NCBI RefSeq assembly: GCF_003334405.1
Contig: NZ_QOWM01000002.1
Origin: Escherichia coli
GTDB taxonomy: Bacteria; Pseudomonadota; Gammaproteobacteria; Enterobacterales; Enterobacteriaceae
DNA length: 64,000 nt
Direction: 5' to 3' (one strand)
Shown piece after piece: positions 13,216 through 64,000 of the stretch; position 1 is the first letter of the stretch, and every line of letters starts with the position of its first letter. The position numbers and the translations under genes are program-made. The notes under the pieces were generated by a model. It had not been told where the DNA came from. It did not search any database and worked only from the letters and a program-made list of their open reading frames with translations.

Positions 13216-13292
<77 letters not shown>

Positions 13293-14633: not shown

Positions 14634-14816
14634 AGGGTGAGGGGTAACCTCACATCCTGATTATTGACTAAGTGCGCGTTGTTCATGCCGGATGCGGCGT
14701 GAACGCCTTATCCGGCCTACAAATCATGCAAATCCAAAATATTGCAGGAGTTATGTAGGCCTGATAAGCGTAGCGCATCAGGCATTTATGCGTTTAGGGT
14801 GAGGGATAACCTCGCC
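14634..14816. repeat. BIME: two inverted REP elements flanked by 21-bp direct repeats
   Basis: REP gccggatgcggcgtgaacgccttatccggcctac (14688..14720) and inverted REP gtaggcctgataagcgtagcgcatcaggc (14755..14783). Flanking repeats agggtgaggggtaacctcaca (14634..14654) and agggtgagggataacctcgcc (14796..14816). Confidence 0.7.
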
Positions 14817-17777: not shown

Positions 17778-17983
17778 AAAAAAAAGCACCGCAATTAGGC
17801 GGTGCTACATTAATCACTATGGACAGACAGGGTAAATGTACAGGAAGTGAAAAAAGGTAGCTTTGCTACCATGGTCTGAATCGCAGACCAATTGCAAACA
17901 CAACAACACAACATCACAACCGTAAGCCAAAAGTTCACCAGAACACGCATTCCGATAAAACTTTTCGTTCCGGCTCAGGAAGT
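17778..17983 (-). ncRNA. gcvB: GcvB small regulatory RNA
   Basis: The reverse complement matches the gcvB sequence as I recall it, from 5' ACTTCCTGAGCCGGAACG to the terminator hairpin (gcaccgcctaattgcggtgc) and U-tract. It is divergent from gcvA, with a TATAGT -10 just upstream on the minus strand. Confidence 0.85.
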
Positions 17984-25095: not shown

Positions 25096-25127
25096 TACAG
25101 ATTCCTCACTTTATTCGGAAAATATGT

Positions 25128-26444
25128 TCAGTTAGTTGCCGTTTGAGAACGGAAACGGGCAAAGATAAAGATGACCGCGAAGCAGAGTGCGGGGATCAGT
25201 TCAGCAGTGGGGATGTTGCCCGCCGCGTCACTGACAAAACCCATGACCGGAGTGACAATACCGCCGCCAATAATGGTCATAACGATGAAGGACGAACCAT
25301 ATTTGGTGTCCTGGCCGAGATTCTTAATGCCCAGCGAGAAGATTGTTGGGTACTGAATCGACATAAAGGCGCTGCATAAAGTCAGGGCTATTAAGCCCAC
25401 ATGACCGCCAGCGAAGGCTGAGATCAGGCACAGTGCCATAGCGATTAATGCGTAGGCGGCCAGGACTTTGTGTGGTGCGAAGCGACTGATGAGCCAGGTA
25501 CCGGTGAAACGACCAATAAAGAAGCACACCATGGTTCCGGTTAAATAGTTAGCGGCAAAGCCTGCAGTCATACCTGGAATTTCTTCTACAGCGTAGCGAA
25601 TCAAATAGCTCCAGCAGGCCGTTTGTGCGCCGACATAGCAGAATTGCGCTAATACCGCCCAGCGCCAGTGGCGAATACGCGCCAGGCGAGAAAGCGATGC
25701 GGAGAACGATCCTTGTTTGGCGTCACTGTGATTATCACTCTGCAATGCCGGGAATTTCGTCAGCATGATCAGCAGGGCGACCAGTAACACGATAGCCACG
25801 ATGATCATATAAGGTGTCTGTACCGATAATACCAGGCTGTGTTTATACGCACTCAATTGCTCTGGAGACATTTTATCGAGAACGTCTTGCGATTGATGTG
25901 GCACGTTAGACAAAATAAGACTTTGCCCAAAGACAACCGCGATAATTGCGCCAAACGAGTTAAATGTTTGCGCAAGATTTAAGCGGAAGTGACCACTACT
26001 TTCCGGCCCTAATACCGTAACAAAAGGGTTTGCGGCAGTTTCCAGACAACCTAATCCGGCTGCAATAATAAATAGGCCAACTAAAAATAAGGTGTAGTTC
26101 ATTATTTCTGCGGCGGGCCAGAATAATGCAGCACCCAAGGCATATAAAAATAACCCGGTAATAATCCCTGCTTTATAACTGAGTTTTTTCATCAATATCC
26201 CAGCAGGGATTGGGATAATGAAATAACCAAAGTAAAAGGCCGATTGGATCAGGCCAGCCTGGAAATTTGTCAGCGTAAAAGCCTGCTGGAATTGAGGTAA
26301 TAAAATGTCGTTAAGGTTATTGGCTACCGCCCAAAGAAAAAACAGTGAGCACAGCAGCGCGAATGGAATAATGTAACTTCTGCTTTGCCCTGCATCTTTA
26401 TCTACCGCACGGTAACTCTGCGTTTGTATTGATGTGTTTCCCAT
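25128..26444 (-). CDS. fucP: L-fucose:H+ symporter FucP (MFS)
   Basis: 438-aa ORF with multiple transmembrane segments. Confidence 0.92.
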   Translation of the reverse strand: MGNTSIQTQSYRAVDKDAGQSRSYIIPFALLCSLFFLWAVANNLNDILLPQFQQAFTLTNFQAGLIQSAFYFGYFIIPIPAGILMKKLSYKAGIITGLFLYALGAALFWPAAEIMNYTLFLVGLFIIAAGLGCLETAANPFVTVLGPESSGHFRLNLAQTFNSFGAIIAVVFGQSLILSNVPHQSQDVLDKMSPEQLSAYKHSLVLSVQTPYMIIVAIVLLVALLIMLTKFPALQSDNHSDAKQGSFSASLSRLARIRHWRWAVLAQFCYVGAQTACWSYLIRYAVEEIPGMTAGFAANYLTGTMVCFFIGRFTGTWLISRFAPHKVLAAYALIAMALCLISAFAGGHVGLIALTLCSAFMSIQYPTIFSLGIKNLGQDTKYGSSFIVMTIIGGGIVTPVMGFVSDAAGNIPTAELIPALCFAVIFIFARFRSQTATN

Positions 26445-26990
26445 AGCATCCTCTTAGGTTCAGAAGCTTAAGCACGTAATCGGTTATGTTTTCAAAAGTG
26501 CAAAACCAGCGAGTTCGGGCTTCATATCAGTGAATATTTGCCTGTCTGAAATGAACTCATGGATTCATTTTCAAATAAAAAACGCTCTGTAATATGACGG
26601 CGGTCACACTTATTAGCTAGAAGGTGACTTTATGTGACTACCATCACTTTAATAATCGAAATTTCATGCCCGTTTCAGAAAATAAATCATAAAAAACACA
26701 AATCAGATGACCGTATTAATTGTTTGTGCCGAAAACGGTCATTCCGGGCTTGGAGGAATAGAAAAATGACCGTTTTGATAAATATTTTTAAGAGCGGTCA
26801 TTTTTAATGGGGTTATAAAAAGAGAACTTGCAGTTATTTACTGTGATTAGTTGAACCAGGTCACAAAATATAAGCTTGTGAATTTCTTTCTTGTTAATCA
26901 GGAAGAAGATGGTGGGTAATTAAACGGCTAATTCAATAGTGTGAAAGGAACAACATTATTGCCCTGTTTTGAATCAGAGAGAGGTAGCTA
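26445..26990. promoter_or_regulatory. Divergent fucPIKUR / fucAO control region
   Basis: 546-bp AT-rich intergenic region between divergent fucP and fucA. Individual binding sites could not be pinned down by eye. Confidence 0.6.
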
Positions 26991-27638
26991 ATGGAACGAA
27001 ATAAACTTGCTCGTCAGATTATTGACACTTGCCTGGAAATGACCCGCCTGGGACTGAACCAGGGGACAGCGGGGAACGTCAGTGTACGTTATCAGGATGG
27101 GATGCTGATTACGCCTACAGGCATTCCATATGAAAAACTGACGGAGTCGCATATTGTCTTTATTGATGGCAACGGTAAACATGAGGAAGGAAAGCTCCCC
27201 TCAAGCGAATGGCGTTTCCATATGGCAGCCTATCAAAGCAGACCGGATGCCAACGCGGTTGTTCACAATCATGCCGTTCATTGCACGGCAGTTTCCATTC
27301 TTAACCGATCGATCCCCGCTATTCACTACATGATTGCGGCGGCTGGCGGTAATTCTATTCCTTGCGCGCCTTATGCGACCTTTGGAACACGCGAACTTTC
27401 TGAACATGTTGCGCTGGCTCTCAAAAATCGTAAGGCAACTTTGTTACAACATCATGGGCTTATCGCTTGTGAGGTGAATCTGGAAAAAGCGTTATGGCTG
27501 GCGCATGAAGTTGAAGTGCTGGCGCAACTTTACCTGACGACCCTGGCGATTACGGACCCGGTGCCAGTGCTGAGCGATGAAGAGATTGCCGTAGTGCTGG
27601 AGAAATTCAAAACCTATGGGTTACGAATTGAAGAGTAA
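26991..27638 (+). CDS. fucA: L-fuculose-1-phosphate aldolase FucA
   Basis: 215-aa class II aldolase ORF. Confidence 0.92.
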   Translation: MERNKLARQIIDTCLEMTRLGLNQGTAGNVSVRYQDGMLITPTGIPYEKLTESHIVFIDGNGKHEEGKLPSSEWRFHMAAYQSRPDANAVVHNHAVHCTAVSILNRSIPAIHYMIAAAGGNSIPCAPYATFGTRELSEHVALALKNRKATLLQHHGLIACEVNLEKALWLAHEVEVLAQLYLTTLAITDPVPVLSDEEIAVVLEKFKTYGLRIEE

Positions 27639-27665
27639 TTTCGTAAAGCAACAAGGAGAAGGATG

Positions 27666-28814
27666 ATGGCTAACAGAATGATTCTGAACGAAACGGCATG
27701 GTTTGGTCGGGGTGCTGTTGGGGCTTTAACCGATGAGGTGAAACGCCGTGGTTATCAGAAGGCGCTGATCGTCACCGATAAAACGCTGGTGCAATGCGGC
27801 GTGGTGGCGAAAGTGACCGATAAGATGGATGCTGCAGGGCTGGCATGGGCGATTTACGACGGCGTAGTGCCCAACCCAACAATTACTGTCGTCAAAGAAG
27901 GGCTCGGTGTATTCCAGAATAGCGGCGCGGATTACCTGATCGCTATTGGTGGTGGTTCTCCACAGGATACTTGTAAAGCGATTGGCATTATCAGCAACAA
28001 CCCGGAGTTTGCCGATGTGCGTAGCCTGGAAGGGCTTTCCCCGACCAATAAACCCAGTGTACCGATTCTGGCAATTCCTACCACAGCAGGTACTGCGGCA
28101 GAAGTGACCATTAACTACGTGATCACTGACGAAGAGAAACGGCGCAAGTTTGTTTGCGTTGATCCGCATGATATCCCGCAGGTGGCGTTTATTGACGCTG
28201 ACATGATGGATGGTATGCCTCCAGCGCTGAAAGCTGCGACGGGTGTCGATGCGCTCACTCATGCTATTGAGGGGTATATTACCCGTGGCGCGTGGGCGCT
28301 AACCGATGCATTGCACATTAAAGCGATTGAAATCATTGCTGGGGCGCTGCGAGGATCGGTTGCTGGTGATAAGGATGCCGGAGAAGAAATGGCGCTCGGG
28401 CAGTATGTTGCGGGTATGGGCTTCTCGAATGTTGGGTTAGGGTTGGTGCATGGTATGGCGCATCCACTGGGCGCGTTTTATAACACTCCACACGGTGTTG
28501 CGAACGCCATCCTGTTACCGCATGTCATGCGTTATAACGCTGACTTTACCGGTGAGAAGTACCGCGATATCGCGCGCGTTATGGGCGTGAAAGTGGAAGG
28601 TATGAGCCTGGAAGAGGCGCGTAATGCCGCTGTTGAAGCGGTGTTTGCTCTCAACCGTGATGTCGGTATTCCGCCACATTTGCGTGATGTTGGTGTACGC
28701 AAGGAAGACATTCCGGCACTGGCGCAGGCGGCACTGGATGATGTTTGTACCGGTGGCAACCCGCGTGAAGCAACGCTTGAGGATATTGTAGAGCTTTACC
28801 ATACCGCCTGGTAA
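27666..28814 (+). CDS. fucO: Lactaldehyde reductase (1,2-propanediol oxidoreductase) FucO
   Basis: ORF 27663..28814. Second ATG taken (MANRMILNE...), giving 382 aa. Iron-containing alcohol dehydrogenase with aaggaga SD upstream. Confidence 0.9.
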   Translation: MANRMILNETAWFGRGAVGALTDEVKRRGYQKALIVTDKTLVQCGVVAKVTDKMDAAGLAWAIYDGVVPNPTITVVKEGLGVFQNSGADYLIAIGGGSPQDTCKAIGIISNNPEFADVRSLEGLSPTNKPSVPILAIPTTAGTAAEVTINYVITDEEKRRKFVCVDPHDIPQVAFIDADMMDGMPPALKAATGVDALTHAIEGYITRGAWALTDALHIKAIEIIAGALRGSVAGDKDAGEEMALGQYVAGMGFSNVGLGLVHGMAHPLGAFYNTPHGVANAILLPHVMRYNADFTGEKYRDIARVMGVKVEGMSLEEARNAAVEAVFALNRDVGIPPHLRDVGVRKEDIPALAQAALDDVCTGGNPREATLEDIVELYHTAW

Positions 28815-28832
28815 ATGCGCTGATGTGATAAT

Positions 28833-28862
28833 GCCGGATACGACGTTTGCGGCGTATCCGGC
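28833..28862. repeat. REP-like palindrome between fucO and xni
   Basis: gccggatacgacgtttgcggcgtatccggc is a near-perfect palindrome. Confidence 0.5.
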
Positions 28863-28868
28863 TCGCCG

Positions 28869-29735
<867 letters not shown>

Positions 29736-31103
29736 TTAATCGCAGGCAACGATCTTCATTGCCAGGCCGCCGCGAGAGGTTTCGCGGTACTTGGCGTTCA
29801 TATCTTTACCTGTTTCGTACATGGTTTCGATAACTTTATCGAGGCAGACGCGCGGCTCGCTGGTACGGCGCAGCGCCATACGTGCGGCGTTCACCGCTTT
29901 TACTGCCGCAATGGCGTTACGCTCGATGCATGGCACCTGTACCTGTCCGGCGACCGGGTCACACGTCAGACCGAGGTTGTGCTCCATGGCGATTTCCGCC
30001 GCGATGCACACCTGCGCCGGGCTTGCGCCTAATAGTTCTGCCAGACCAGCCGCCGCCATTGAGCACGCCACGCCAACTTCACCCTGGCAACCCACTTCAG
30101 CACCAGAAATCGACGCGTTCATCTTATAAAGAGAACCAATGGCGCTGGCTACCAGCAGGTAACGAGCCAGTGAGTTAGCGTTCACTTCGCGGATAAACTT
30201 GTCGTAGTACGCCAGAACTGCCGGGATAATCCCGCACGCACCGTTAGTCGGCGCAGTCACCACGCGACCGCCAGCAGCGTTCTCTTCGTTCACTGCCAGT
30301 GCAAACATGTTGATCCAGTCAACAACCGCCATCGGGTCAGTGGTGGTTTTATCCTGGCTGACCAGCATCCGGCGTAGTGCCGCAGCACGGCGTGGAACGC
30401 GCAGTTTGCCAGGCAACACGCCTTCGGTGGAAATACCGCGCTCAATACCGCCGCGCATGACTTCCCAGACGTTCGCCAGGTGCTGTTCCAGCTCTTCTTT
30501 GCTGTGCAGCGCCAGCTCGTTTTTCATCATCAGGCCAGAGAGTGACAGCCCGGTTTCCTGACAATGTTTTTGCAGATCGGCTGCTGAACTGTACGGATAA
30601 GGAACTTCAACCGGTGCGCTATCCTGCTGGCCAAAATGCTCTTCATCAACGATAAAGCCACCGCCAATAGAGTAGTAAGTCTGGCTGTAAACGACTTTAT
30701 CGCCCGCCAGCGCGGTAATGCGCATACCGTTTTCATGCAGAGAAAGGTTGTCGGCGTGGAAGTTCATGCACTGATCAACCGGGAACTCCACTTCATGCTG
30801 ACCGTTTGCCAGCATCAGGCGACCATGAGTATTCACATCCTGAATAAAACTGGGGATGGAATCGATATCCACGGTATCCGGCAGGTTACCCGCCAGGCCC
30901 ATAATAATGGCGATATCAGTGTGGTGGCCTTTACCGGTCAGAGAGAGCGAGCCGTACACGTCAACCACCACGCGGGTCACGTCTTTAAGCAGGTTACGGG
31001 CAATCAGATCGTCGGTAAATTGTTTACCCGCTTTCATTGGTCCAACGGTATGAGAACTGGAAGGGCCAATGCCGATTTTGAAAATATCGAATACGCTAAT
31101 CAT
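29736..31103 (-). CDS. sdaB: L-serine dehydratase 2
   Basis: 455-aa ORF recognised as SdaB. A hairpin terminator lies downstream at about 29700..29730 on the minus strand. Confidence 0.92.
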   Translation of the reverse strand: MISVFDIFKIGIGPSSSHTVGPMKAGKQFTDDLIARNLLKDVTRVVVDVYGSLSLTGKGHHTDIAIIMGLAGNLPDTVDIDSIPSFIQDVNTHGRLMLANGQHEVEFPVDQCMNFHADNLSLHENGMRITALAGDKVVYSQTYYSIGGGFIVDEEHFGQQDSAPVEVPYPYSSAADLQKHCQETGLSLSGLMMKNELALHSKEELEQHLANVWEVMRGGIERGISTEGVLPGKLRVPRRAAALRRMLVSQDKTTTDPMAVVDWINMFALAVNEENAAGGRVVTAPTNGACGIIPAVLAYYDKFIREVNANSLARYLLVASAIGSLYKMNASISGAEVGCQGEVGVACSMAAAGLAELLGASPAQVCIAAEIAMEHNLGLTCDPVAGQVQVPCIERNAIAAVKAVNAARMALRRTSEPRVCLDKVIETMYETGKDMNAKYRETSRGGLAMKIVACD

Positions 31104-31160
31104 AGGAAATACATCGCGTTAAAACGGAGGAAGCGCCGCCCGAAAGCGGCGCGAAAGGAC

Positions 31161-32450
31161 TTAGCTGAACAGAGAGTAGAAGATTGCGGAGATTGCAATC
31201 AGACCCATCACGACAACGAATACGTTGCTGATGTGACCGCTGTACTTACGCATTGCCGGTACTTTCTGAATTGCGTACATCGGCATCAGGAACAGGATCA
31301 TCGCGATGATTGGACCGCCCAGGGTTTCAATCATACCCAGGATGCTCGGGTTCAGGGTGGCAACAATCCAGGTCGTTACCAGCATGAACAGCGCAGTGAT
31401 ACGGTTCAGCTTGTTGATTTCGATAGACTTACCTTTACCACGCAGAGATTTAATCACCATACCGTTGAAGCCTTCACGTGCGCCCAGGTAGTGACCGAGG
31501 AAGGATTTGGTGATAGCGATAATCGCGATAATCGGAGCCATCCACGCGATAACCGGTGCGTTAAAGTGGTTAGCCAGGTAAGACAGAATCGAGATGTTCT
31601 GCTCTTTAGCCGCAGCCAGGTCTGCCGGAGTCAGGCTCAGTACACAGCTGAAGACGAAGAACATTACGGTCAGCACCATCATGATGTGTGCGAATGCCAG
31701 GATCTTCGAGCATTTCTGTTCTGCCATATCGCCGTACTCTTCACGCTTCGCAACGGCGAAAGAAGAGATGATCGGAGAGTGGTTGAACGAGAACACCATT
31801 ACCGGAATTGCCAGCCACAGGGTCATCCACAGACCGTTTCCGGTTGCAGATGCAGTGTCCAGAGACAGCGTTTCCAGTGCAGCGCCGTTCCACTGCGGGA
31901 TCAGGTACAGAGCCAGCAGCATCAGTACGCCAACAAACGGGAATACCAGAATACTCATCGCTTTAACGATCATCTGCTCACCGAAGCGAACGATGGTCAT
32001 CATACCCACGATCAGGATCAGCGACAGAATCGCACGCGGCGGTGGCGTCATACCCAGCTGGTGAGACATGAAGCTTTCAACGGTATTGGTGATTGCCACG
32101 CTATAAACCAGCAGGATCGGGTAGATAGCGAAGAAGTAGAGCAGGGTAATCAGTTTACCTGCGCCAATACCAAAGTGTTCTTCTACAACCTCGGTGATGT
32201 CTTCGCCCGGGTTTTTACCAGACAGTACGAAGCGAGTCAGGCCGCGGTGAGCAAAAAACGTCATCGGGAACGCAAGGATAGCCATGATGATCAGCGGGAT
32301 CATACCGCCAACACCGGCGTTGATTGGCAGGAACAGCACGCCCGCGCCGATTGCCGTGCCGTAAAGGCCCAGCATCCACATGGTGTCTGTCTTGCGCCAG
32401 GCACTACGAGAGTCTTTCGACGCAATCGTGCTGGTTTGAGTCGTTTCCAT
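31161..32450 (-). CDS. sdaC: Serine:H+ symporter SdaC
   Basis: 429-aa polytopic membrane ORF. Confidence 0.92.
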
Positions 32451-33006
32451 CTATTTCTCCTGGAGGAATGCAAATAATTCAGCTTTTAGCCAGTTCAGCC
32501 CGGGAAGGTGCCTGACCGTAAAAATGAAATCTGTCTATCGGCGATGGCTTAATCATTTACCGCCGTAATAATTTGAGGGCGGAAAGATACACACAAGTTA
32601 TGTATCTATCAGTGATCTTGATCTCAAATACAATAATCTACTTGGAAGATAGATTATCCCAACGCTTTACTCTGTAAATCAAAAGTAAAAGAGAATTTAA
32701 GGGCAATATTTGCCCATTAAACGACATCTGACTTCTTCCGGGGCGCGCAATATATGTAGGTTGAACTGAAAAAATCAATACTTTTAGTTAATCATGGCGA
32801 TAATTTCTTTTTCATAGCGATAAAATACGGTTTATGAAAATAGGGAAACGTTTGCGTTGCAACATAAATTGTATGACATATTAACTGTGATGATATTTGT
32901 CGCGTGAGGGTGGTAAGAAACATTCATATAACAAATGAAATGAGTTGATGAGTAAGTGACCAAAAACGAGAAAACCCGGCAACAAACGTCACCGGGGGAG
33001 CGGAGA

Positions 33007-34371
33007 TTACGTGCAGATTTCGTAGCAAGGGATGTAGGCTGAGCCTGGCAACTTCATACGATGCTGGGCAACAAAACCCTGTAGCAGGTCGTCCATACGA
33101 CGCATAATCTCTTTATCGCCGTTGATTTTGTAAGGACCAAACTCTTCAATGGCGCGAATACCGACTTCTTTTACGTTACCCGCCACAATACCGGAGAACG
33201 CACGGCGCAGGTCGGCAGCCAGCACTTCAACAGGTTGATCCGGGTAAAGCTTCAGATTAGCCATATTCTCGTGAGACGGCTCAAACGGCATTTGCAAATC
33301 TGGCGCAATGCGCATTGACCAGTTAAAGCTGTAGGCATCGCCTGTATCACGGCGATTTTCTTTCACCAGCGGCATCGATTTTTTCATCTGACGAGCGACT
33401 TCAGCTGCGTCATCAATGATGATGCGGTAATGGCGGCGCGCGTTTTCACCCAGCGTATGCACGACAAACTCGTCCAGTACGCGGAAGTAGTCGGCGCTCT
33501 CTTTCGGGCCGGTGAGGATCAATGGTAAAACCTGATCTTTGTTGGCCGGGTTCATTAAAATTCCCAGCAAATAGAGCAACTCTTCTGCCGTACCCACACC
33601 GCCAGGGAAGATAATGATACCGTGAGCGATACGGACAAACGCTTCCAGACGTTTTTCGATATCTGGCATGATGATCAATTCGTTGACCAGCGGGTTAGGC
33701 GGTTCAGCGGCGATAATCGACGGCTCTGTCATACCAATAAAACGACTGTCTTTGTAACGCTGCTGCGCGTGTCCGACCGCAGCACCTTTCATCGGCGCTT
33801 CCATCGCTCCCGGACCACAGCCGGTGCAGATATTCAGCTCACGCAGGCCCAGCTGGTTTCCGACGCGACGGGCATACAAATACTCGTTTTCGTTAATTGA
33901 GTGACCGCCCCAGCAGACCACCATATTTGGCGCTTCACCCACATGCAGCGCGCGAGCGTTACGCAAGATGGAAAAGACCAGGTTAGTGATGTGGACGGAG
34001 TTGTCGAGATTCAGGTTGGGAAAACGAACGGTGTTATGGATTTGCCCGTAAACGAAGAGAATGTCACGCAGGACCGCGAACAAGTTGGCCTGCAAAGCGC
34101 GAATAATTCGCCCATCGACAAAAGCCTCTTCCGGGGGATTAATCAGTTCCAGCTTTACGCCGCGTTCACGGCGCAAGACGTTAATATCGAAATTTTCAAA
34201 ACGAGACAGCAATTCTTTGCTGTTATCGGTCAAACTACCGGAGTTCAGTACGGCAAGTGAACAGTTGCGAAACAGTTGATAGAGGTCGCTGCTGGCGGTG
34301 CGTTTAAGCATATCCACTTCCAGCTGCGACAACATATCCATGGAGCCAAGCGGGCTAATATGTGTAATCAA
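33007..34371 (-). CDS. ppnN: Nucleotide 5'-monophosphate nucleosidase PpnN (YgdH, LOG family)
   Basis: 454-aa ORF with a LOG-family region ([10 protein letters not shown]). Confidence 0.85.
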
Positions 34372-34482
34372 GAAAAACTCCTTATGGGACGAATATCGTC
34401 ATTCCCTTTGATTACAATAGCCCTGCCTGATGACCTTTCACAACCTTCTGCGTGAATCCAGCACGCAAAATTGAGAAAAAAT

Positions 34483-35331
34483 TTATTGCCGAACCAGTCT
34501 TGTGGTCGATGGGACAAAATCGCTATTACTGCGCCACGGGTTAATGTCCAGACCGCCACGACGGGTATAACGTGCGTAAACGCTCAATTTTTCTGGCTGG
34601 CAGAAGCGTAACAGGTCATTAAAGATGCGTTCCACGCACTGTTCGTGGAACTCGTTGTGATGACGGAATGAGACCAGGTAACGCAGCAGTTTTTCTCTGT
34701 CAATTTGGCGTCCACGATACTGAATTTGGAGCGAACCCCAATCTGGTTGATGGGTGATCAGGCAGTTTGATTTCAGCAGGTGGCTGACAAGCGTCTCTTC
34801 CACTACTTTTTCACCACAGGTGGCATTCTCCAGATAGTCAGTAGTGAATTCATAGTTATCGATAGTGATATCCTGGTCATCAATGCAAGTGCCATTAAAA
34901 TGACCTATCGGCTGGCCTTCCAGTTCATCAAGACGATATAACGCCACGCTAATCTTACCCTGAGCGCAAGTGCTTAAGTCGCGCTCCAGCGTCTGGCGCA
35001 CCTCATCCCAGTTATTAAAACGCGTCTGGTTAAAACTGTTGAGATAGAGCTTAAAACTCTTCGACTCAATCAGATTTACGCTGGTGTAATCAAGTTCAAC
35101 ATGACCGACAGCGACCTGCGGCAAACCTTTCGCATTCAGCCAGGAAAGTTCATACAGCGTCCAGATATCCGTACCGTGAAAAGGCAGGTTATCCGCTTTC
35201 AGACCCAGCGGGTCGCGATTCAGGCTGCGTGGAACGCCTTGCAGTAGGCTGGCGTCATAGGTATCCCGGTAATCGGTTGATTTTCCAAGAGTCAGGCCCG
35301 CAAGTGCCTGATGGTTTGCATAAGAAGACAT
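34483..35331 (-). CDS. queF: NADPH-dependent 7-cyano-7-deazaguanine reductase QueF
   Basis: 282-aa ORF beginning [31 protein letters not shown]. Confidence 0.9.
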
Positions 35332-35398
35332 GTTTCACCGTCATAAACCAGATAAACTAAACGACAAGTGTATCTGGTTTAAGTGAAGAGAGAAATTA

Positions 35399-35944
35399 GT
35401 GGACGATTTGACCGCACAAGCCCTGAAAGATTTTACTGCACGCTACTGCGATGCGTGGCATGAAGAGCATAAAAGCTGGCCGTTAAGTGAGGAACTGTAC
35501 GGTGTTCCTTCACCGTGCATTATTTCAACTACCGAAGATGCCGTATACTGGCAACCCCAGCCGTTTACCGGGGAACAAAATGTAAACGCGGTTGAACGCG
35601 CTTTTGATATTGTGATACAACCCACAATTCATACCTTTTATACGACTCAGTTTGCCGGGGATATGCACGCGCAGTTTGGCGATATCAAACTGACATTGCT
35701 GCAAACCTGGAGTGAAGACGACTTCCGTCGGGTGCAGGAAAATCTGATTGGTCATCTGGTGACTCAGAAAAGGCTAAAACTGCCGCCCACACTATTTATC
35801 GCGACGCTGGAAGAAGAGTTAGAGGTCATCTCGGTGTGTAATCTCTCCGGTGAAGTGTGCAAAGAGACGCTGGGAACACGTAAACGGACGCATTTAGCCT
35901 CAAATCTTGCGGAATTCCTTAATCAACTTAAGCCTCTTCTGTAA
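35399..35944 (+). CDS. syd: SecY-interacting protein Syd
   Basis: 181-aa ORF recognised as Syd. Confidence 0.88.
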
Positions 35945-35963
35945 TCCAAATACCCCATCTGGT

Positions 35964-35981
35964 TGTGAGAGATCTCTTACA
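35964..35981. promoter_or_regulatory. 18-bp palindrome upstream of csrB; candidate UvrY (BarA-UvrY) binding box
   Basis: Perfect palindrome tgtgagagatctcttaca about 165 bp upstream of csrB. Confidence 0.55.
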
Positions 35982-36144
35982 GACTCTGTAGGAGATCGCC
36001 AGGAAATAAGCGAATACTTAAAAAGATAAGAATCGTTATTTTCATTTAAAATCAAAATGTTGATTGTTAATTCTTAACTTTCATATGAAATTTTCCTTAA
36101 GGCATTGTCTGTAAGCGCCTTGTAAGACTTCGCGAAAAAGACGA

Positions 36145-36520
36145 TTCTATCTTCGTCGACAGGGAGTCAGACAACGAAGTGAACATCAGGATGATGACAC
36201 TTCTGCAGGACACACCAGGATGGTGTTTCAGGGAAAGGCTTCTGGATGAAGCGAAGAGGATGACGCAGGACGCGTTAAAGGACACCTCCAGGATGGAGAA
36301 TGAGAACCGGTCAGGATGATTCGGTGGGTCAGGAAGGCCAGGGACACTTCAGGATGAAGTATCACATCGGGGTGGTGTGAGCAGGAAGCAATAGTTCAGG
36401 ATGAACGATTGGCCGCAAGGCCAGAGGAAAAGTTGTCAAGGATGAGCAGGGAGCAACAAAAGTAGCTGGAATGCTGCGAAACGAACCGGGAGCGCTGTGA
36501 ATACAGTGCTCCCTTTTTTT
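36145..36520 (+). ncRNA. csrB: CsrB, CsrA-sequestering small RNA
   Basis: About 370 nt with roughly 20 reiterated GGA motifs (caggatg, aggaca, cagggag). Ends in a terminator hairpin gggagcgctg..cagtgctccc plus ttttttt (36488..36520). The 5' end is approximate. Confidence 0.85.
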
Positions 36521-36565
36521 ATTCCTGCTATCCTTCGCGGCAGTTTTTCTTATTGAGGTTGCTTT

Positions 36566-36895
36566 ATGACCACTCATGACCGCGTTCGTCTCCAGTTGCA
36601 GGCGCTTGAAGCGTTACTGCGTGAACATCAGCACTGGCGAAACGATGAACCCCAGCCGCATCAATTTAATAGTACCCAACCGTTCTTTATGGACACCATG
36701 GAACCACTGGAGTGGTTGCAGTGGGTGCTGATCCCGCGAATGCACGATTTGTTAGATAACAAACAGCCGTTACCGGGCGCTTTTGCCGTTGCACCCTATT
36801 ATGAAATGGCGCTGGCGACGGACCATCCGCAACGCGCGCTTATTCTGGCTGAGCTGGAAAAACTGGATGCTCTTTTTGCGGATGATGCGAGCTAA
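36566..36895 (+). CDS. yqcC: DUF446 protein YqcC
   Basis: 109-aa ORF. Its stop overlaps the truC start (TAATG). Confidence 0.82.
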   Translation: MTTHDRVRLQLQALEALLREHQHWRNDEPQPHQFNSTQPFFMDTMEPLEWLQWVLIPRMHDLLDNKQPLPGAFAVAPYYEMALATDHPQRALILAELEKLDALFADDAS

Positions 36896-55260: not shown

Positions 55261-55932
55261 ATGCAGTACCCGATTAACGAGATGTTCCAGACCCTGCAAG
55301 GTGAGGGTTACTTTACCGGCGTTCCCGCCATTTTTATTCGTTTACAGGGATGCCCGGTTGGCTGTGCCTGGTGCGACACCAAACACACCTGGGAAAAGCT
55401 TGAGGATCGGGAAGTCTCCCTTTTCAGCATTCTGGCGAAGACCAAAGAGAGTGATAAGTGGGGGGCTGCGAGCAGTGAAGATTTGCTGGCTGTCATTGGT
55501 CGCCAGGGATACACCGCGCGGCATGTGGTGATTACGGGTGGTGAGCCTTGCATTCATGATTTGCTGCCACTGACTGATCTGCTCGAAAAGAACGGTTTTA
55601 GCTGCCAGATCGAAACCAGTGGTACTCATGAGGTACGCTGCACACCGAATACCTGGGTTACCGTATCGCCAAAGCTGAACATGCGCGGCGGCTATGAAGT
55701 GTTGTCACAGGCACTGGAGCGAGCCAACGAAATCAAGCATCCAGTGGGGCGCGTACGCGATATTGAAGCACTGGATGAACTACTGGCAACGCTGACCGAT
55801 GATAAACCGCGAGTCATTGCACTGCAGCCGATTAGCCAAAAGGATGATGCCACACGTTTGTGCATTGAAACCTGCATTGCGCGTAATTGGCGTTTGTCGA
55901 TGCAAACACATAAATATCTAAATATTGCCTGA
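55261..55932 (+). CDS. queE: 7-carboxy-7-deazaguanine synthase QueE (radical SAM)
   Basis: 223-aa ORF with a cysteine cluster (CPVGCAWCDTKHTW). Confidence 0.9.
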   Translation: MQYPINEMFQTLQGEGYFTGVPAIFIRLQGCPVGCAWCDTKHTWEKLEDREVSLFSILAKTKESDKWGAASSEDLLAVIGRQGYTARHVVITGGEPCIHDLLPLTDLLEKNGFSCQIETSGTHEVRCTPNTWVTVSPKLNMRGGYEVLSQALERANEIKHPVGRVRDIEALDELLATLTDDKPRVIALQPISQKDDATRLCIETCIARNWRLSMQTHKYLNIA

Positions 55933-56099: not shown

Positions 56100-56271
56100 G
56101 GTAAAGTTTGGTAGATTTTAGTTTGTATAGAGTTATTTTAAATATTTACCTTTTTAATCAATGGATTAAGTGCTCTTTAACATAATGGATGTGTTGTTTG
56201 TGTGATACTATAAAGTTGGTAGATTGTGACTGGCTTAAAAAATCATTAATTAATAATAGGTTATGTTTAGA
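56100..56271 (+). promoter_or_regulatory. CRISPR leader (AT-rich), immediately upstream of the first repeat
   Basis: About 170 bp of AT-rich sequence ending ...taataataggttatgtttaga next to repeat 1. The repeat orientation puts the leader on this side. Confidence 0.5.
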
Positions 56272-56544
56272 GTGTTCCCCGCGCCAGCGGGGATAAACCG
56301 GCAAAAACCGGGCAATCGCAAAAAGGCGTAATGTGTTCCCCGCGCCAGCGGGGATAAACCTGTGTTTGCGGCATTAACGCTCACCAGCATTTCGTGTTCC
56401 CCGCGCCAGCGGGGATAAACCGAGCAGATACACGGCTTTGTATTCCGTGCGCCCGTGTTCCCCGCGCCAGCGGGGATAAACCGGAGCCTGACGAGACTAC
56501 TGAGGCCGTTCTGTCGAGTTCCCCGCGCCAGCGGGGATAAACCA
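56272..56544 (+). CRISPR. Type I-E CRISPR array, 5 repeats of 29 nt and 4 spacers of 32 nt (61-bp period)
   Basis: Repeats start at 56272, 56333, 56394, 56455 and 56516, with consensus gtgttccccgcgccagcggggataaaccg. The last repeat reads gagttccccgcgccagcggggataaacca. Spacers: 56301..56332 gcaaaaaccgggcaatcgcaaaaaggcgtaat; 56362..56393 gtgtttgcggcattaacgctcaccagcatttc; 56423..56454 agcagatacacggctttgtattccgtgcgccc; 56484..56515 gagcctgacgagactactgaggccgttctgtc. Confidence 0.95.
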
Positions 56545-56998: not shown

Positions 56999-57136
56999 AT
57001 ATTCCTTGTAAAAACAGGGATAAACCGAACTAGTTAAAGTTTTTATTATGTTCCCTGCATCAGCGGGGATAAACCGGACTTGTTATCATTTTTTAAGTTG
57101 TCGAACTTATGTTCCCCGCGTCAGCGGGGATAACCA
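56999..57136 (+). CRISPR. Degenerate CRISPR remnant: one truncated and two mutated I-E-like repeats
   Basis: Partial repeat ending cagggataaaccg at 57027; atgttccctgcatcagcggggataaaccg at 57048..57076; a 32-nt spacer at 57077..57108; atgttccccgcgtcagcggggataacca at 57109..57136. Same strand and 61-bp spacing as the main array. Confidence 0.6.
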
Positions 57137-57182
57137 TTCAGGTATGTTCAGGCCGGGCAGTTTCCCGCCCGGCCTTCCTCAC

Positions 57183-58439
57183 TTACGCATTCGACCAGCT
57201 CTGGATCGAATCCACATTCCCCAATTCCCCATGCATCACTTCATACGATTTTTTCAGGATCACATCAGTATGTTTGGTTAGGTCTTTGAAAATGCCTTTA
57301 TTCATCGCGTCGTAGCGTTTGGCATTGCTCTCAATCGGTATAAAGATATCTTTCACGCGAACCATGTTATCGACAGCCGTTGCGTAATCCGGGTATAGCC
57401 CCAGACCTACCGCTGTATTAATCGCTGCCCCCAGGCTTGCACAACCGTTAATGGCGTTACGTCGTGCCGGAAGGTTGAACACGTCGGCAAAAATCTGCAT
57501 AAACAGATCGCTGTTCGAACCGCCGCCAGTAATGATCACATGCTTCGCAAAGTGATTCATTTCATTACACATATTGTCGTAATTGTTCTTCAGCGTCAGC
57601 GCCACGCTTTCCAGTATCGAACGATATATCCATGCGTAATCCATGCTGGAATCAAAGCCGATCATAATCCCGCGTTTGTACGGTTCCCACGGATTGGTCA
57701 GCCAGTCCAGCACCGTCATCAGACCATTACAGCCTGGCGGCACACAAGAAGCTTTTTTGTTGAGTAAATCTTCCGGTGAAAGATCCTGCGCCCTGGCATC
57801 CTGAATTAACGACTCGCCTAGCATGTCGCGCAGCCAGCTCACCGTCCACATGCCTTTGCGAATACCGTAACCTTCATACAGCAATGTTTGCGGAATAGAA
57901 GACATAATCGGCCAGTACGCTACTGGATCTTTCGGCAGTGCTTTGCCGTTCATCATCAATGCGATGTAAGTGCCAAGAGAAATTACCGCCGTTTCATCAT
58001 CCAGTAATCCGGCCCCCAGAGCTTCTACCGGTTTATCACTGGTGGTACAAACAACCGGCAGTCCTGCCGGGAAATGTGTCGCCAGTGCGGCTTGTGGTGT
58101 GATATGTCCGAGGACGGTGCCAGGCATTTGCACATCAAACAGCATATGACGGGGGATATTAAACTTATCCATTACCGCAGCATCTTCGCTCCATGCCCAG
58201 CTCTTATAATCCACCGGCCACTGACCAAAATAGTTGGCGATATTGTCTTTAAACTCGCCGGTTAACCGCCCGCCGGAAAGATTTTTGCTGCCGGGGATTT
58301 CAGCGCGTTCCAGTAACAAAACGGATAAACCCGCTCGCGCGCAGCGTAACGCGCAAGCGGTGCCTGCAATACCGGCACCAATAATAATAATGTCGCAGTC
58401 GTCTTCCATGTCATGCCCCAGATATCCAGAACACAACAC
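57183..58439 (-). CDS. Hybrid ORF: FAD-binding Rossmann N-terminus (about 50 aa) fused to the C-terminal ~365 aa of an FGGY sugar kinase; probable deletion-fusion product
   Basis: 418-aa ORF. The N-terminus DIIIIGAGIAGTACALRCARAGLSVLLLER is a classic GxGxxG dinucleotide-binding fold. The rest is FGGY-like (VISLGTYIALM ... HVIITGGGSNSDLFMQIFADVFNLPARR) and lacks the N-terminal ATP-binding motif of that family. Alternative start at the ATG at 58409. Confidence 0.6.
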   Translation of the reverse strand: MLCSGYLGHDMEDDCDIIIIGAGIAGTACALRCARAGLSVLLLERAEIPGSKNLSGGRLTGEFKDNIANYFGQWPVDYKSWAWSEDAAVMDKFNIPRHMLFDVQMPGTVLGHITPQAALATHFPAGLPVVCTTSDKPVEALGAGLLDDETAVISLGTYIALMMNGKALPKDPVAYWPIMSSIPQTLLYEGYGIRKGMWTVSWLRDMLGESLIQDARAQDLSPEDLLNKKASCVPPGCNGLMTVLDWLTNPWEPYKRGIMIGFDSSMDYAWIYRSILESVALTLKNNYDNMCNEMNHFAKHVIITGGGSNSDLFMQIFADVFNLPARRNAINGCASLGAAINTAVGLGLYPDYATAVDNMVRVKDIFIPIESNAKRYDAMNKGIFKDLTKHTDVILKKSYEVMHGELGNVDSIQSWSNA

Positions 58440-58486
58440 CCTAACATAGCGTTACTTAAGGGAAATTGACCGCCGACACACTCTTA

Positions 58487-58852
58487 TCATTCGCCGCGAT
58501 AGATACAACCTGCGGTGCAGGTTTCTTTTACCATCACCGCACTTAACAGCGGCACAACGGGTTTAACCTGATCCCAAATCCATTTTGCTAAAACCTCGCT
58601 GGTTGGGTTTTCCAGACCTGGAATATCATTGAGATAATGGTGATCGAGGCGCTCGTAGGTTGGTTTAAACGCCGCTTTTAGTTCAGCGAAATCGATAATC
58701 CAGCCCGTATGCGGATCGACTTCCCCGGTAATTTCCAGTCGCACCATAAAGGAATGCCCGTGCAGGCGACCACATTTATGCCCTTCCGGGACGTGTGGTA
58801 AGCGGTGAGCGGCTTCGAAGGTGAAATCTTTAAATAACGTGGTGGACATCAT
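58487..58852 (-). CDS. queD: 6-carboxy-5,6,7,8-tetrahydropterin synthase QueD
   Basis: ORF 58487..58936. Start placed at [18 protein letters not shown], giving 121 aa, with the CGRLHGHSF zinc-binding motif. Confidence 0.88.
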
Positions 58853-59167
58853 AATTTCTCTACAGGACGATAAAACCGCCGTAGAGTACCGGAAAGGCTG
58901 TTTTTTCGCATTATCTAAAACGACTTTGTTGCGCAAAATCGCTGATTTATCTTAATGATTGGCTAAATTCATTTGTTTTTCATTAGGTTGGTTAATCTAT
59001 TTTGTTGTTAAAGACTATTGCTAAAACAGGTTAGTCGATTTGGTTATTAGTTATCGCTATCCCGTCTTTAATCCACACCGTTTGCCCCGTTAACCTTACC
59101 TTCTCTTCTGTTTTATGGGCGCTGACAGGGCGCAGAAACAGCTTTGCTTACTGGAACATAACGACGC

Positions 59168-60967
59168 ATGACGACACAGGTCCCACCTTCCGCGTTGCTT
59201 CCGTTGAACCCGGAGCAACTGGCACGCCTTCAGGCGGCCACGACCGATTTAACTCCCACCCAGCTTGCCTGGGTTTCTGGCTATTTCTGGGGCGTACTCA
59301 ATCAGCAGCCTGCTGCGCTTGCAGCGACGCCAGCGCCAGCCGCAGAAATGCCGGGTATAACTATTATCTCCGCCTCGCAAACCGGCAATGCGCGCCGGGT
59401 TGCTGAAGCATTACGTGATGATTTATTAGCAGCAAAACTGAACGTTAAGCTGGTGAACGCGGGCGACTATAAATTCAAACAAATCGCCAGCGAAAAACTG
59501 CTCATCGTAGTGACGTCAACGCAAGGGGAAGGGGAACCGCCGGAAGAAGCCGTCGCGCTGCATAAGTTCCTGTTCTCCAAAAAAGCGCCAAAGCTGGAAA
59601 ACACCGCGTTTGCCGTGTTTAGCCTCGGCGATAGCTCTTATGAATTTTTCTGCCAGTCCGGGAAAGATTTCGACAGCAAGCTGGCGGAACTGGGTGGTGA
59701 ACGCCTGCTCGACCGTGTCGATGCCGATGTTGAATACCAGGCTGCTGCCAGCGAGTGGCGCGCCCGCGTGGTTGATGCGCTTAAATCGCGTGCGCCTGTC
59801 GCGGCACCTTCGCAATCCGTCGCTACTGGCGCGGTAAATGAAATCCACACCAGCCCGTACAGCAAAGACGCGCCGCTGGTGGCTAGCCTCTCTGTTAACC
59901 AGAAAATTACCGGGCGTAACTCTGAAAAAGACGTTCGCCATATCGAAATTGACTTAGGTGACTCGGGCCTGCGTTACCAGCCGGGTGACGCGCTGGGCGT
60001 CTGGTATCAGAACGATCCGGCACTGGTGAAAGAACTTGTCGAACTGCTGTGGCTGAAAGGCGATGAACCTGTCACCGTCGAGGGCAAAACGTTGCCTCTG
60101 AACGAAGCGCTACAGTGGCACTTCGAACTGACCGTCAACACCGCCAACATTGTTGAGAATTACGCCACGCTTACCCGCAGTGAAACACTGCTGCCGCTGG
60201 TGGGCGATAAAGCGAAGTTACAGCATTACGCCGCGACGACGCCGATTGTTGACATGGTGCGTTTCTCCCCGGCACAGCTTGATGCCGAAGCGCTAATTAA
60301 TCTGCTGCGCCCGCTGACGCCGCGTCTCTATTCCATTGCCTCCTCGCAGGCGGAAGTCGAGAACGAAGTACACGTCACCGTTGGTGTGGTGCGTTACGAC
60401 GTGGAAGGCCGCGCCCGTGCCGGTGGTGCCTCCAGCTTCCTCGCTGACCGCGTGGAAGAAGAGGGCGAAGTCCGCGTATTTATCGAACATAACGATAACT
60501 TCCGCCTGCCAGCCAATCCAGAAACCCCGGTGATTATGATTGGCCCAGGCACCGGCATCGCGCCGTTCCGCGCCTTTATGCAGCAACGTGCTGCCGATGA
60601 AGCGCCGGGAAAAAACTGGCTGTTCTTTGGCAACCCGCACTTTACGGAAGATTTCCTCTACCAGGTGGAGTGGCAGCGCTACGTCAAAGAGGGTGTGCTG
60701 ACGCGGATCGATCTCGCCTGGTCGCGCGACCAAAAAGAAAAAGTTTACGTACAAGACAAACTGCGCGAACAGGGCGCGGAGCTGTGGCGCTGGATCAATG
60801 ACGGTGCCCACATTTATGTCTGCGGTGACGCTAATCGCATGGCGAAAGACGTTGAGCAGGCACTTCTGGAAGTGATTGCCGAATTTGGTGGCATGGACAC
60901 CGAAGCGGCGGATGAATTTTTAAGTGAGCTGCGCGTAGAGCGCCGTTATCAGCGAGATGTCTACTAA
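59168..60967 (+). CDS. cysJ: Sulfite reductase [NADPH] flavoprotein alpha subunit
   Basis: 599-aa ORF with flavodoxin-like and FAD/NADPH-binding regions. Its stop overlaps the cysI start (TAATG). Confidence 0.93.
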
Positions 60968-62679
60968 TGAGCGAAAAACATCCAGGGCCTTTAGTGGTCG
61001 AAGGAAAACTGACAGACGCCGAGCGCATGAAGCTTGAAAGCAACTACCTGCGCGGCACCATTGCGGAAGATTTAAACGACGGTCTGACCGGCGGCTTTAA
61101 GGGCGACAACTTCCTGCTGATCCGCTTCCACGGCATGTATCAGCAGGATGACCGCGACATCCGCGCCGAACGTGCTGAACAGAAGCTGGAGCCGCGCCAC
61201 GCGATGCTGTTGCGCTGCCGTCTGCCGGGTGGGGTGATTACCACTAAACAGTGGCAGGCGATAGACAAATTTGCCGGTGAAAACACCATCTATGGCAGCA
61301 TTCGCCTGACCAACCGCCAGACGTTTCAGTTCCACGGCATTCTGAAAAAGAACGTCAAACCGGTGCACCAGATGCTGCACTCGGTTGGTCTTGATGCGCT
61401 GGCGACCGCTAACGACATGAACCGTAACGTACTCTGCACCTCGAACCCTTACGAGTCGCAGCTACACGCGGAAGCGTACGAGTGGGCGAAGAAGATTTCT
61501 GAGCATCTGCTGCCGCGTACCCGCGCGTATGCGGAGATCTGGCTCGACCAGGAAAAAGTCGCCACTACTGATGAAGAACCGATCCTCGGCCAGACCTACC
61601 TGCCGCGTAAATTCAAAACCACGGTAGTGATCCCGCCACAGAACGATATCGATCTGCACGCCAACGACATGAACTTCGTGGCGATCGCCGAAAACGGCAA
61701 GCTGGTGGGCTTTAACCTGTTGGTGGGCGGTGGGCTTTCCATCGAACACGGCAACAAGAAAACCTACGCCCGCACCGCGAGTGAGTTTGGCTATCTGCCG
61801 CTGGAGCATACGCTGGCGGTGGCCGAAGCCGTCGTGACAACTCAGCGTGACTGGGGTAACCGAACCGATCGTAAAAATGCCAAAACCAAATACACGCTGG
61901 AGCGCGTGGGGGTTGAGACGTTTAAAGCGGAAGTGGAGCGTCGCGCGGGGATCAAATTTGAACCGATCCGTCCATATGAGTTCACCGGACGAGGCGATCG
62001 TATTGGCTGGGTTAAGGGCATTGATGATAACTGGCACCTGACGCTGTTTATCGAAAATGGTCGCATCCTTGATTATCCGGCGCGTCCGCTGAAAACCGGC
62101 CTGCTGGAGATCGCGAAGATCCACAAAGGCGATTTCCGCATTACGGCGAACCAGAATCTGATCATCGCCGGTGTACCGGAAAGCGAGAAAGCGAAGATCG
62201 AGAAGATCGCCAAAGAGAGCGGGTTAATGAATGCCGTCACGCCGCAGCGTGAAAACTCAATGGCCTGCGTGTCATTCCCGACTTGCCCGCTGGCGATGGC
62301 GGAAGCGGAGCGTTTCCTGCCGTCTTTTATCGACAACATCGATAATTTAATGGCGAAACATGGTGTCAGCGATGAGCATATCGTGATGCGTGTAACAGGC
62401 TGCCCGAACGGTTGTGGTCGCGCGATGCTGGCGGAAGTGGGCCTGGTGGGTAAAGCGCCGGGTCGCTACAACCTGCATCTTGGCGGCAACCGCATTGGGA
62501 CACGTATCCCTCGGATGTATAAAGAAAACATCACCGAGCCGGAAATCCTGGCGTCGCTTGATGAACTGATAGGGCGCTGGGCGAAAGAGCGCGAAGCGGG
62601 TGAAGGCTTCGGCGACTTTACGGTGCGTGCGGGCATCATTCGCCCGGTGCTCGATCCGGCGCGCGATTTGTGGGATTAA
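60967..62679 (+). CDS. cysI: Sulfite reductase [NADPH] hemoprotein beta subunit
   Basis: 570-aa ORF with a siroheme/4Fe-4S cysteine region ([16 protein letters not shown] ... TGCPNGCGR). Confidence 0.93.
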
Positions 62680-62696
62680 CCATCAGCCCGGTCTTG

Positions 62697-62731
62697 TAGG
62701 CCTGATAAGACGCGTGAGCGTCGCATCAGGC
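62697..62731. repeat. REP element between cysI and cysH
   Basis: gtaggcctgataagacgcgtgagcgtcgcatcaggc is REP-like. Confidence 0.55.
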
Positions 62732-62752
62732 AAGGCAAACAGTGAGGAATCT

Positions 62753-63487
62753 ATGTCCAAACTCGATCTAAACGCCCTGAACGAACTGCCGAAGGTAGAT
62801 CGCATTCTGGCGCTGGCGGAAACTAACGCCCAACTGGAAAAACTGGACGCTGAAGGCCGCGTAGCCTGGGCGCTGGATAATCTGCCCGGTGAATATGTGC
62901 TTTCTTCCAGCTTCGGCATTCAGGCGGCGGTGAGCCTGCATCTGGTGAATCAGATTCGGCCGGATATTCCAGTGATCCTCACCGATACCGGTTATCTGTT
63001 TCCGGAAACCTACCGCTTTATTGACGAGTTAACGGACAAACTCAAGCTCAACCTGAAAGTGTACCGTGCTACCGAAAGCGCCGCCTGGCAGGAAGCACGC
63101 TACGGCAAACTGTGGGAACAGGGCGTTGAAGGCATTGAAAAGTACAATGACATCAACAAAGTCGAACCGATGAACCGGGCGCTGAAAGAACTTAACGCGC
63201 AAACCTGGTTTGCTGGCCTGCGCCGCGAACAATCCGGCAGCCGCGCCAATTTACCGGTGCTGGCAATTCAGCGTGGCGTATTTAAAGTGCTGCCGATTAT
63301 CGACTGGGATAACCGAACTATTTATCAGTACCTGCAAAAACATGGCCTGAAATATCACCCATTATGGGATGAAGGATATTTATCGGTCGGTGATACCCAT
63401 ACAACCCGTAAATGGGAACCTGGCATGTCGGAAGAAGAAACACGTTTCTTTGGCTTAAAAAGGGAATGTGGATTGCACGAAGGGTAA
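62753..63487 (+). CDS. cysH: Phosphoadenosine phosphosulfate (PAPS) reductase
   Basis: ORF 62600..63487. Start placed at [42 protein letters not shown], giving 244 aa, with a C-terminal ECGLH motif. Confidence 0.92.
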
Positions 63488-63751
63488 ATATTGCCGGATA
63501 AATTAAACGCCTCTGTCAGAAATGATGGGGGCGTTTTTATTTTGCGAGCAGTATTCCTGATTTTAAACGTGAACGCCGCTGGAAGAATTATCAGGTATAG
63601 AATGGCGTCGGGTGCTTGAGGCTGTCTGGCGTTAAGCATTCGCGAGGTTCCAGATGGACAAAAGCCCCAGGCGATATTTCTATCAACCTGAGGCTTACGT
63701 TCGAACCCAAACAATTCGAATGTTAGTCTCTTCTTTGCAGGGAGGCAAGAC

Positions 63752-63904
63752 ATGCTGACAAAATATGCCCTTGTGGCAATCATAGTGCTGTGTTTTACAG
63801 TACTGGGATTCACGCTGATGGTAGGCGACTCGTTGTGTGAGTTGAGTATCAGAGAACGTGGTATGGAGTTTAAGGCAGTTCTCGCTTACGAATCGAAGAA
63901 GTAG
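63752..63904 (+). CDS. Hok/Gef-family type I toxin (50 aa), HokE-like
   Basis: Not in the ORF track because it is under 60 aa. I translated it by hand: [51 protein letters not shown] ggagg SD sits 7-11 nt upstream. It has one transmembrane helix and the conserved SLCE...R and AYES motifs of the Hok family. Confidence 0.7.
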
Positions 63905-64000
63905 CCACCACGCGGGGGTAAAACCCATAAGCGCTAACTTAAGGGTTGAACCATCTGAAGAATGCGACGCCTCGGTGCCTCGTTAAGACGATGCCTCGCG

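Follow-up and report, generated by a model that had tools for sequence, protein, structure and literature searches.

A four-spacer type I-E CRISPR array between queE and ygcE in Escherichia coli and its relation to the CRISPR-II locus of K-12

The CRISPR-II locus and its flanking genes

The DNA analysed here is a 64-kb stretch from E. coli (hereafter the window). It is collinear as a whole with annotated stretches of E. coli X14-3, from recC to hok. The genes are arranged in the order recC, ptrA, recB, recD, argA, amiC, ..., csrB, ..., barA, rlmD, relA, mazEFG, pyrG and eno, followed by ygcG, yqcG, queE, a CRISPR array, ygcE, ..., queD, cysJIH and hok. Three small RNA loci are found at their usual E. 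coli positions, namely CsrB (36164-36523, plus strand), GcvB (17778-17983, minus strand) and a match to ES036 (14720-14762, plus strand). One tRNA-Met (CAT) gene is located between mltA and amiC (13216-13292, minus strand). X14-3 has three tandem copies of it, 110 bp apart, and two copies appear to have been lost from the window by recombination between repeats.

The array occupies 56272-56544 on the plus strand. It consists of five 29-nt repeats, which start at 56272, 56333, 56394, 56455 and 56516 with an exact period of 61 bp, and four 32-nt spacers. Repeat 1 (56272..56300; GTGTTCCCCGCGCCAGCGGGGATAAACCG) is followed by the leader-proximal spacer A (56301..56332; GCAAAAACCGGGCAATCGCAAAAAGGCGTAAT), repeat 2 (56333..56361), spacer B (56362..56393; GTGTTTGCGGCATTAACGCTCACCAGCATTTC), repeat 3 (56394..56422), spacer C (56423..56454; AGCAGATACACGGCTTTGTATTCCGTGCGCCC), repeat 4 (56455..56483), the trailer-proximal and oldest spacer D (56484..56515; GAGCCTGACGAGACTACTGAGGCCGTTCTGTC) and repeat 5 (56516..56544; GAGTTCCCCGCGCCAGCGGGGATAAACCA), a terminal variant. 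All four spacers are distinct, and none is duplicated elsewhere in the window, where the best other match is 21/32. The 26-nt core of the repeat, GTTCCCCGCGCCAGCGGGGATAAACC, has five exact copies in the window and two further copies with three mismatches, and its chance expectation is 0.00 in 100 dinucleotide-preserving shuffles of the window. A sequence-only reading of the window had described a type I-E array with four spacers at this place; the lengths of the repeats and spacers, the 61-bp period and the shuffles confirm it. The same reading had called the repeats exact, and this is wrong. The core is exact in all five, and the repeats vary at positions 2 and 29 only: the last base of repeat 2 (56361) is T and not G, as in every relative compared, and repeat 5 starts with GAG (A at position 2) and has A at position 29.

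All five repeats fit the I-E consensus G(A/T)GTTCCCCGCGCCAGCGGGGATAAACCG, in which the 29 nt comprise 28 nt plus a PAM-derived base, and a sequence comparison showed them to be identical to the repeats of K-12. The repeat RNA is predicted to fold as ....(((((((....)))))))......., that is, into a 7-bp stem with a 4-nt loop, at -15.1 to -15.2 kcal/mol (-15.2 kcal/mol for repeat 1) and with a z-score of about -3.2 to -3.7; the terminal repeat keeps this hairpin. The predicted hairpin has the shape expected of a Cas6e substrate. An Rfam search, at gathering as well as permissive thresholds, gave no match to a CRISPR-repeat family and only two sub-threshold chance matches. The repeats are intergenic and palindromic, as interspersed palindromes of the REP/BIME type would be, and one could ask whether they are such elements or a tandem structure produced by chance. 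The exact 61-bp period with unique 32-nt spacers, the chance expectation of zero, the match to the I-E consensus and the annotation of these repeats as CRISPR in thousands of genomes speak against it, and we regard the probability of a non-CRISPR origin as negligible.

The array is almost certainly CRISPR2.3 of the E. coli CRISPR-II locus, which is located between queE (ygcF) and ygcE. The subtype I-E (cas-E) system serves two arrays, of which CRISPR2.3 is one. On the left, queE (ygcF) is an open reading frame at 55261..55932 on the plus strand, and X14-3, K-12 and others have an annotated queE at the corresponding place. On the right lies ygcE, in the form described below, and the position of the array itself is annotated as CRISPR in matching E. 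coli genomes. We tried to refute the assignment on the identity of the flanks and on the match of the repeats to the I-E consensus, and both held. The locus has been described as CRISPR2.3 with its own conserved leader, together with a degenerate CRISPR2.2 located 0.5 kb away (PMC3903273; mBio 2014). The array is not the cas-adjacent one next to iap. A displaced cas-adjacent array was rejected as well, as CRISPR2.3 is always set apart from the cas genes: in every strain, the cysJIH region separates the CRISPR2.3 array from the cas operon.

The right flank is not intact. A deletion of 9,491 bp relative to intact strains has left an in-frame ygcN'-'ygcE fusion at 57183..58409 on the minus strand. 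Its junction is at 58263-58265, where there are 3 bp of microhomology. The deletion removed the 5' part of ygcE, all of yqcE, ygcW, ygcU, ygcS, ygcR, ygcQ, ygcP and ygcO, and most of ygcN. The fusion reading frame consists of the first 49 codons of ygcN and the last 360 of ygcE, and cysJIH now lies within 2.7 kb of the array. No genome among the best-matching complete E. coli genomes listed aligned across the 58263-58265 junction as a single piece. Different deletions of the ygcE-ygcN region are found in other strains.

Leader and CRISPR2.2-type remnant

The sequence-only reading had placed an AT-rich leader on the left of the array. We agree with this polarity, since the degenerate terminal repeat marks the right-hand end of the array, opposite the leader, and the GC content of the 200 nt upstream of the array is 26.5%, compared with 51% in the whole window. 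The last 110 nt of the leader (56162..56271, plus strand) are the same in K-12, X14-3, strain 97.3 and strain MLI104K2. A -10 box was reported at -61 to -66, and acquisition was found to need about 60 bp of the leader (Yosef 2012, PMC3384332). The window carries TGATACTAT at 56203-56211 (-69 to -61), in which the hexamer TACTAT corresponds to -66 to -61 and is preceded by TGA. A generic scan of the leader for sigma-70 promoters and terminators found nothing on the plus strand. A weak IHF-like site is present at 56241-56253 (-31 to -19), where the consensus WATCAANNNNTTR is matched only with two mismatches. With one mismatch or fewer, no match to the IHF consensus was found in the leader, in a test that is weak in that such sites occur in 29% of shuffled sequences.

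We judge the functional status of the leader from its identity to a tested leader and not from these motifs. It is identical to the leader of K-12 array II at 110 of 110 positions. Expression of Cas1 and Cas2 leads to expansion of K-12 array II (Yosef 2012, PMC3384332). BL21-AI has no cas genes, and upon expression of Cas1 and Cas2 its array expands as well; the repeats and leader of this array were described as identical to those of K-12 array II (Yosef 2012, PMC3384332). The likeness between the BL21-AI array and the window runs through that description (PMC3384332) and the leader of K-12 array II.

The sequence-only reading had overlooked further repeats downstream. Three decayed repeats are present on the plus strand at 56999-57027, 57048-57076 and 57109-57137; the two intervening spacers measure 20 and 32 nt. 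This remnant (56999..57137) begins 455 bp past the last repeat of CRISPR2.3. Two of its repeats have three mismatches in the core and the third is decayed further. As judged from sequence, 56999-57137 fits the published description of CRISPR2.2 (PMC3903273). The stretch that bears it is 100% identical in K-12 and close relatives.

All three decayed repeats are still predicted to form the hairpin with a 7-bp stem and a 4-nt loop. In the most decayed one, it is formed through paired changes from C-G to U-A at two positions of the stem, plus one G-U wobble. One could suppose that selection other than current immunity keeps the CRISPR-II locus, or the CRISPR2.2 hairpins, independently of the cas genes. 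This reading follows from the invariant leader, from the array being kept in lineages without cas-E and from the survival of the CRISPR2.2 hairpins through paired substitutions. A possible role would be that of a standing landing pad, useful once a cas-E module is regained by recombination; another possible role is that of a Cas-independent structured RNA or DNA element. Two paired changes among three repeats could be due to chance or hitch-hiking, and we consider selection of this kind quite unlikely.

Spacer order and spacer targets

The order of spacers at this locus was compared among strains. It is A-B-C-D in the window, A-B-E-C-F-D in X14-3, A-B-E-C-D in one K-12 record, A-B-E-D in strain 97.3 and A-B-D in strain MLI104K2. 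In canonical K-12 strains, all four spacers of the window fall within 337 bp, a length that fits six spacers. The window, X14-3, K-12, 97.3 and MLI104K2 also share the 110-nt leader and the repeat variants, including the final T of repeat 2. The array belongs to a known CRISPR2.3 spacer group, in that its four spacers are shared with K-12 and others. The leader, repeat 1 and spacer A occur together in 773 of 5,426 complete genomes, K-12 included, and 1,695 genomes carry one or more of the four spacers of the window. The commonest of the four is spacer D, which is found alone in many unrelated strains. The exact A-B-C-D allele is absent among the 5,426 complete RefSeq E. coli genomes, where the best match is 95%.

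On this comparison of sequences, all four spacers are ancestral. Because A to D occur in a common order in relatives with the same leader and repeat variants, we infer that the array of the window derives, through loss of spacers, from an ancestral set common to them all. The only differences between the window and the relatives are losses of internal spacers. Spacers E and F would have been lost from a six-spacer array of the K-12 type, presumably by recombination between repeats. The array would thus be a frozen and decaying copy of an old spacer set, with four of six spacers kept and nothing gained. The comparison of spacer order with other E. coli arrays had been proposed as a check, and it places A to D in the same order within the K-12-type set, with E and F missing.

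Taken together, K-12 CRISPR-II resembles the window in its flanking genes, the 110-nt leader, the repeat variants (T at the end of repeat 2 and a terminal repeat of the form GAG...A), the order of spacers A to D and the CRISPR2.2-bearing stretch, which is 100% identical. It differs in that the window is without the internal spacers E and F and has its ygcE cut short by the 9.5-kb deletion.

We searched the spacers by blastn (E<=10) against 50,697 phage records and 72,556 plasmids. Only spacer B gave matches, and these are in genes for the portal protein of temperate phages of Klebsiella and Escherichia and of phage-plasmids. The full-length match of spacer B is 29/32; positions 2, 6 and 12 are mismatched, and GCG is the upstream triplet. 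In a more distant phage the match is 27/32 and the upstream triplet is AAC. A scan of 2.9 million viral contigs of IMG/VR, in which every sixth base was masked, gave no match for any of the four spacers. For spacers A, C and D, no target was thus found among the phage records, the plasmids or IMG/VR, and the search that had been proposed for the spacers yielded only the imperfect portal match of spacer B. In E. coli chromosomes, every sampled match lies in a CRISPR array, except for one prophage portal gene in strain Ec42, which matches spacer B at 28/30. No self-target was found within the window, where the best match outside the array is 21/32.

In Cascade, the bases at spacer positions 6 and 12 flip out, and mismatches there are tolerated; position 2 is in the seed. 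GCG is not an interference-type PAM. Because of the seed mismatch at position 2 and the GCG triplet, the phages with these portal genes are, as far as their sequences tell, relatives of the source of spacer B and not targets that would be cut. In type I-E systems, the last base of the repeat is copied from the final PAM position of the source of the spacer. The final T of repeat 2 thus raises the question of the PAM at the origin of spacer B, which may derive from a non-AAG site. When this was examined in the related phages, they were found to carry G or C at the position in question.

These results bear on whether the array is an active, recently adapting record, in which the leader-proximal spacers stem from recent encounters with phages or plasmids. 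The polarity of the array, from the leader at its left-hand end to the degenerate repeat at its right-hand end, is what such a record would show, and a phage portal gene does resemble spacer B. On the other hand, 773 complete genomes have spacer A next to the leader, all four spacers are present in K-12 and in distant isolates with none peculiar to the strain of the window, and spacer losses are the sole differences from the relatives. Moreover, no interference-competent target was found in the 50,697 phage records, the 72,556 plasmids and the 2.9 million viral contigs. We consider a recently adapting array highly improbable. The sequence-only reading had taken the spacer at 56301..56332 to be the newest. 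This is formally right, as the spacer is leader-proximal, but it is uninformative about recent encounters of this strain, as it occupies the same position in 773 genomes including K-12. Derivation by spacer loss from the ancestral set remains our reading of the array.

The IS element beside hok and the cas genes

No cas genes are present in the 64-kb window, and the collinear annotation of X14-3, from recC to hok, likewise has none. The earlier statement that no cas reading frame occurs in the window thus holds. It had also been proposed, by analogy with K-12, that the cas operon lies just past the right-hand end. The gene order is in agreement with this: cysJIH is followed by hok/sok and then by the position of cas3. 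The sok RNA and the hok toxin gene, a type I toxin-antitoxin locus, are at 63610..63904 on the plus strand (Rfam sok, 113 bits), with the hok coding sequence at 63752-63904 and a Hok/Gef coding sequence annotated at the homologous position. This locus lies between cysH and an IS element, and no other landmark comes between it and the place of the cas genes. At 63926..64000, the window closes with 75 nt from the end of an element of the IS186/IS421 type, with its terminal inverted repeat (CATAAGCGCTAACTTAAGGGTTG...), preceded by GGGGTAAAACC at 63915-63925. The analogy with K-12 is unsafe because the window ends in an IS element right after hok, and genomes with the same junction are divided between cas-less ones and ones in which the IS reaches the region upstream of cas3.

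The hok-IS junction of the window recurs unchanged in 844 complete genomes. In 328 genomes, the IS runs into the upstream region of cas3, as found with a query for the junction between the IS and this region. In 279 genomes, the whole cas operon is gone, as found with a contiguous query from cysH through hok, the IS and the array remnant to iap. About 237 of the 844 junction genomes belong to neither count. A cas-less count of 273, obtained with a short junction query, was dropped in favour of 279, as the second IS copy of X14-3 carries the same junction.

The IS end could belong to a simple insertion between hok and the promoter region of cas3, in which case an intact cas-E operon would follow about 2.1 kb past the end of the window, and the array would be part of a working, probably H-NS-silenced, complete I-E system. 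X14-3 is the example of this arrangement. It is cas-positive and identical to the window at 100% over 58263-64000, the right 5.7 kb, and its IS421 is a simple insertion followed by the AT-rich region upstream of cas3 and then by cas3, casABCDE, cas1, cas2 and CRISPR2.1. GGGGTAAAACC is present on both sides of this IS, as a target-site duplication. The 328 genomes with the junction between the IS and the cas3 upstream region also point to an intact operon. Against it are the 279 genomes that have the same hok-IS junction and no operon, BL21 and E. coli C among them, and four cas-less strains, BUCT2930, 17MR471, AH21 and PC6, that match 24.9 kb of the window's left flank at 100%. The window contains one end of the IS only, and with it one of the two sides needed to recognise a target-site duplication. 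We put the chance of an intact operon slightly below even.

IS186-associated removal of the cas-E genes has been described (PMC3903273). In the cas-less group, which comprises BL21, E. coli C, BUCT2930, 17MR471, AH21 and PC6, the far end of the IS abuts a fragment of a spacer; what is left of the iap-side array, short and without a leader, comes next, and then iap. In BL21 and E. coli C, the arrangement is a full IS of about 1.34 kb, then GGGTTTTTCCCCACCGTTCAGG, a few repeats and iap. The deletion that left this scar took away the leader, a part of the iap-side array and all eight cas-E genes, namely cas3, cse1, cse2, cas7, cas5, cas6e, cas1 and cas2. E. coli B (BL21/BL21-AI) and E. coli C, which have orphan I-E arrays without cas-E, carry the same hok-IS186/IS421-type junction as the window. 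The window is also like the IS186 remodelling of CRISPR-I (PMC3903273), including the cas-less 'case G', in having an IS186-type end just past hok/sok at a GC-rich target, as published for the IG2-IG3 boundary; it differs from those arrangements in that only the first 75 nt of the IS are seen. In X14-3 (24640-36740), two IS421 copies of opposite annotated orientation enclose the whole cas-E operon together with most of CRISPR2.1. The second of them lies inside the array, and its far junction is as in the cas-less strains. This pair of IS copies resembles the two-IS intermediate that was postulated as a precursor of cas loss (PMC3903273).

Point differences between the window and its relatives do not discriminate between the two arrangements. 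E. coli C, which is cas-negative, is 100% identical to the window across the right flank, as cas-positive X14-3 is over the right 5.7 kb, and the window differs from cas-positive or cas-negative relatives by 0-4 SNPs over about 20 kb. That the strain is cas-less and the array an orphan has, in our judgement, an even or marginally better than even chance.

Use of the array would hinge on the sequence past the window. With Cas proteins present, the known I-E scheme would apply as follows. The leader promoter would transcribe the array rightwards, and Cas6e would cut each repeat at the 3' base of the 7-bp hairpin, giving 61-nt crRNAs. In each crRNA, a 32-nt spacer would lie between the 8-nt handle AUAAACCG and a 21-nt hairpin handle. 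Cascade with its crRNA would find PAM-flanked protospacers, Cas3 would degrade the target, and Cas1-Cas2 with IHF would insert new spacers where the leader meets repeat 1. In a cas-less strain, the array would be inert. Even so, by analogy it should still accept spacers when Cas1-Cas2 is supplied in trans, since BL21-AI acquires spacers in this way with repeats and a leader identical to those of K-12 array II (Yosef 2012), and the leader of the window matches the K-12 leader at 110 of 110 positions.

The locus, its leader, the companion remnant and the nearby IS186-mediated loss of cas-E have all been described before (PMC3903273, PMC3384332). The only new items are the A-B-C-D spacer-loss allele, unseen in the 5,426 complete genomes, and the adjacent 9.5-kb deletion. 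Their practical value lies in annotation and strain typing, as the A-B-C-D allele together with the ygcE-ygcN deletion would mark a lineage. This case illustrates that the I-E arrays of closely related E. coli strains differ by loss of spacers and not by gain. This pattern fits the published view that the I-E system is largely inactive in nature.
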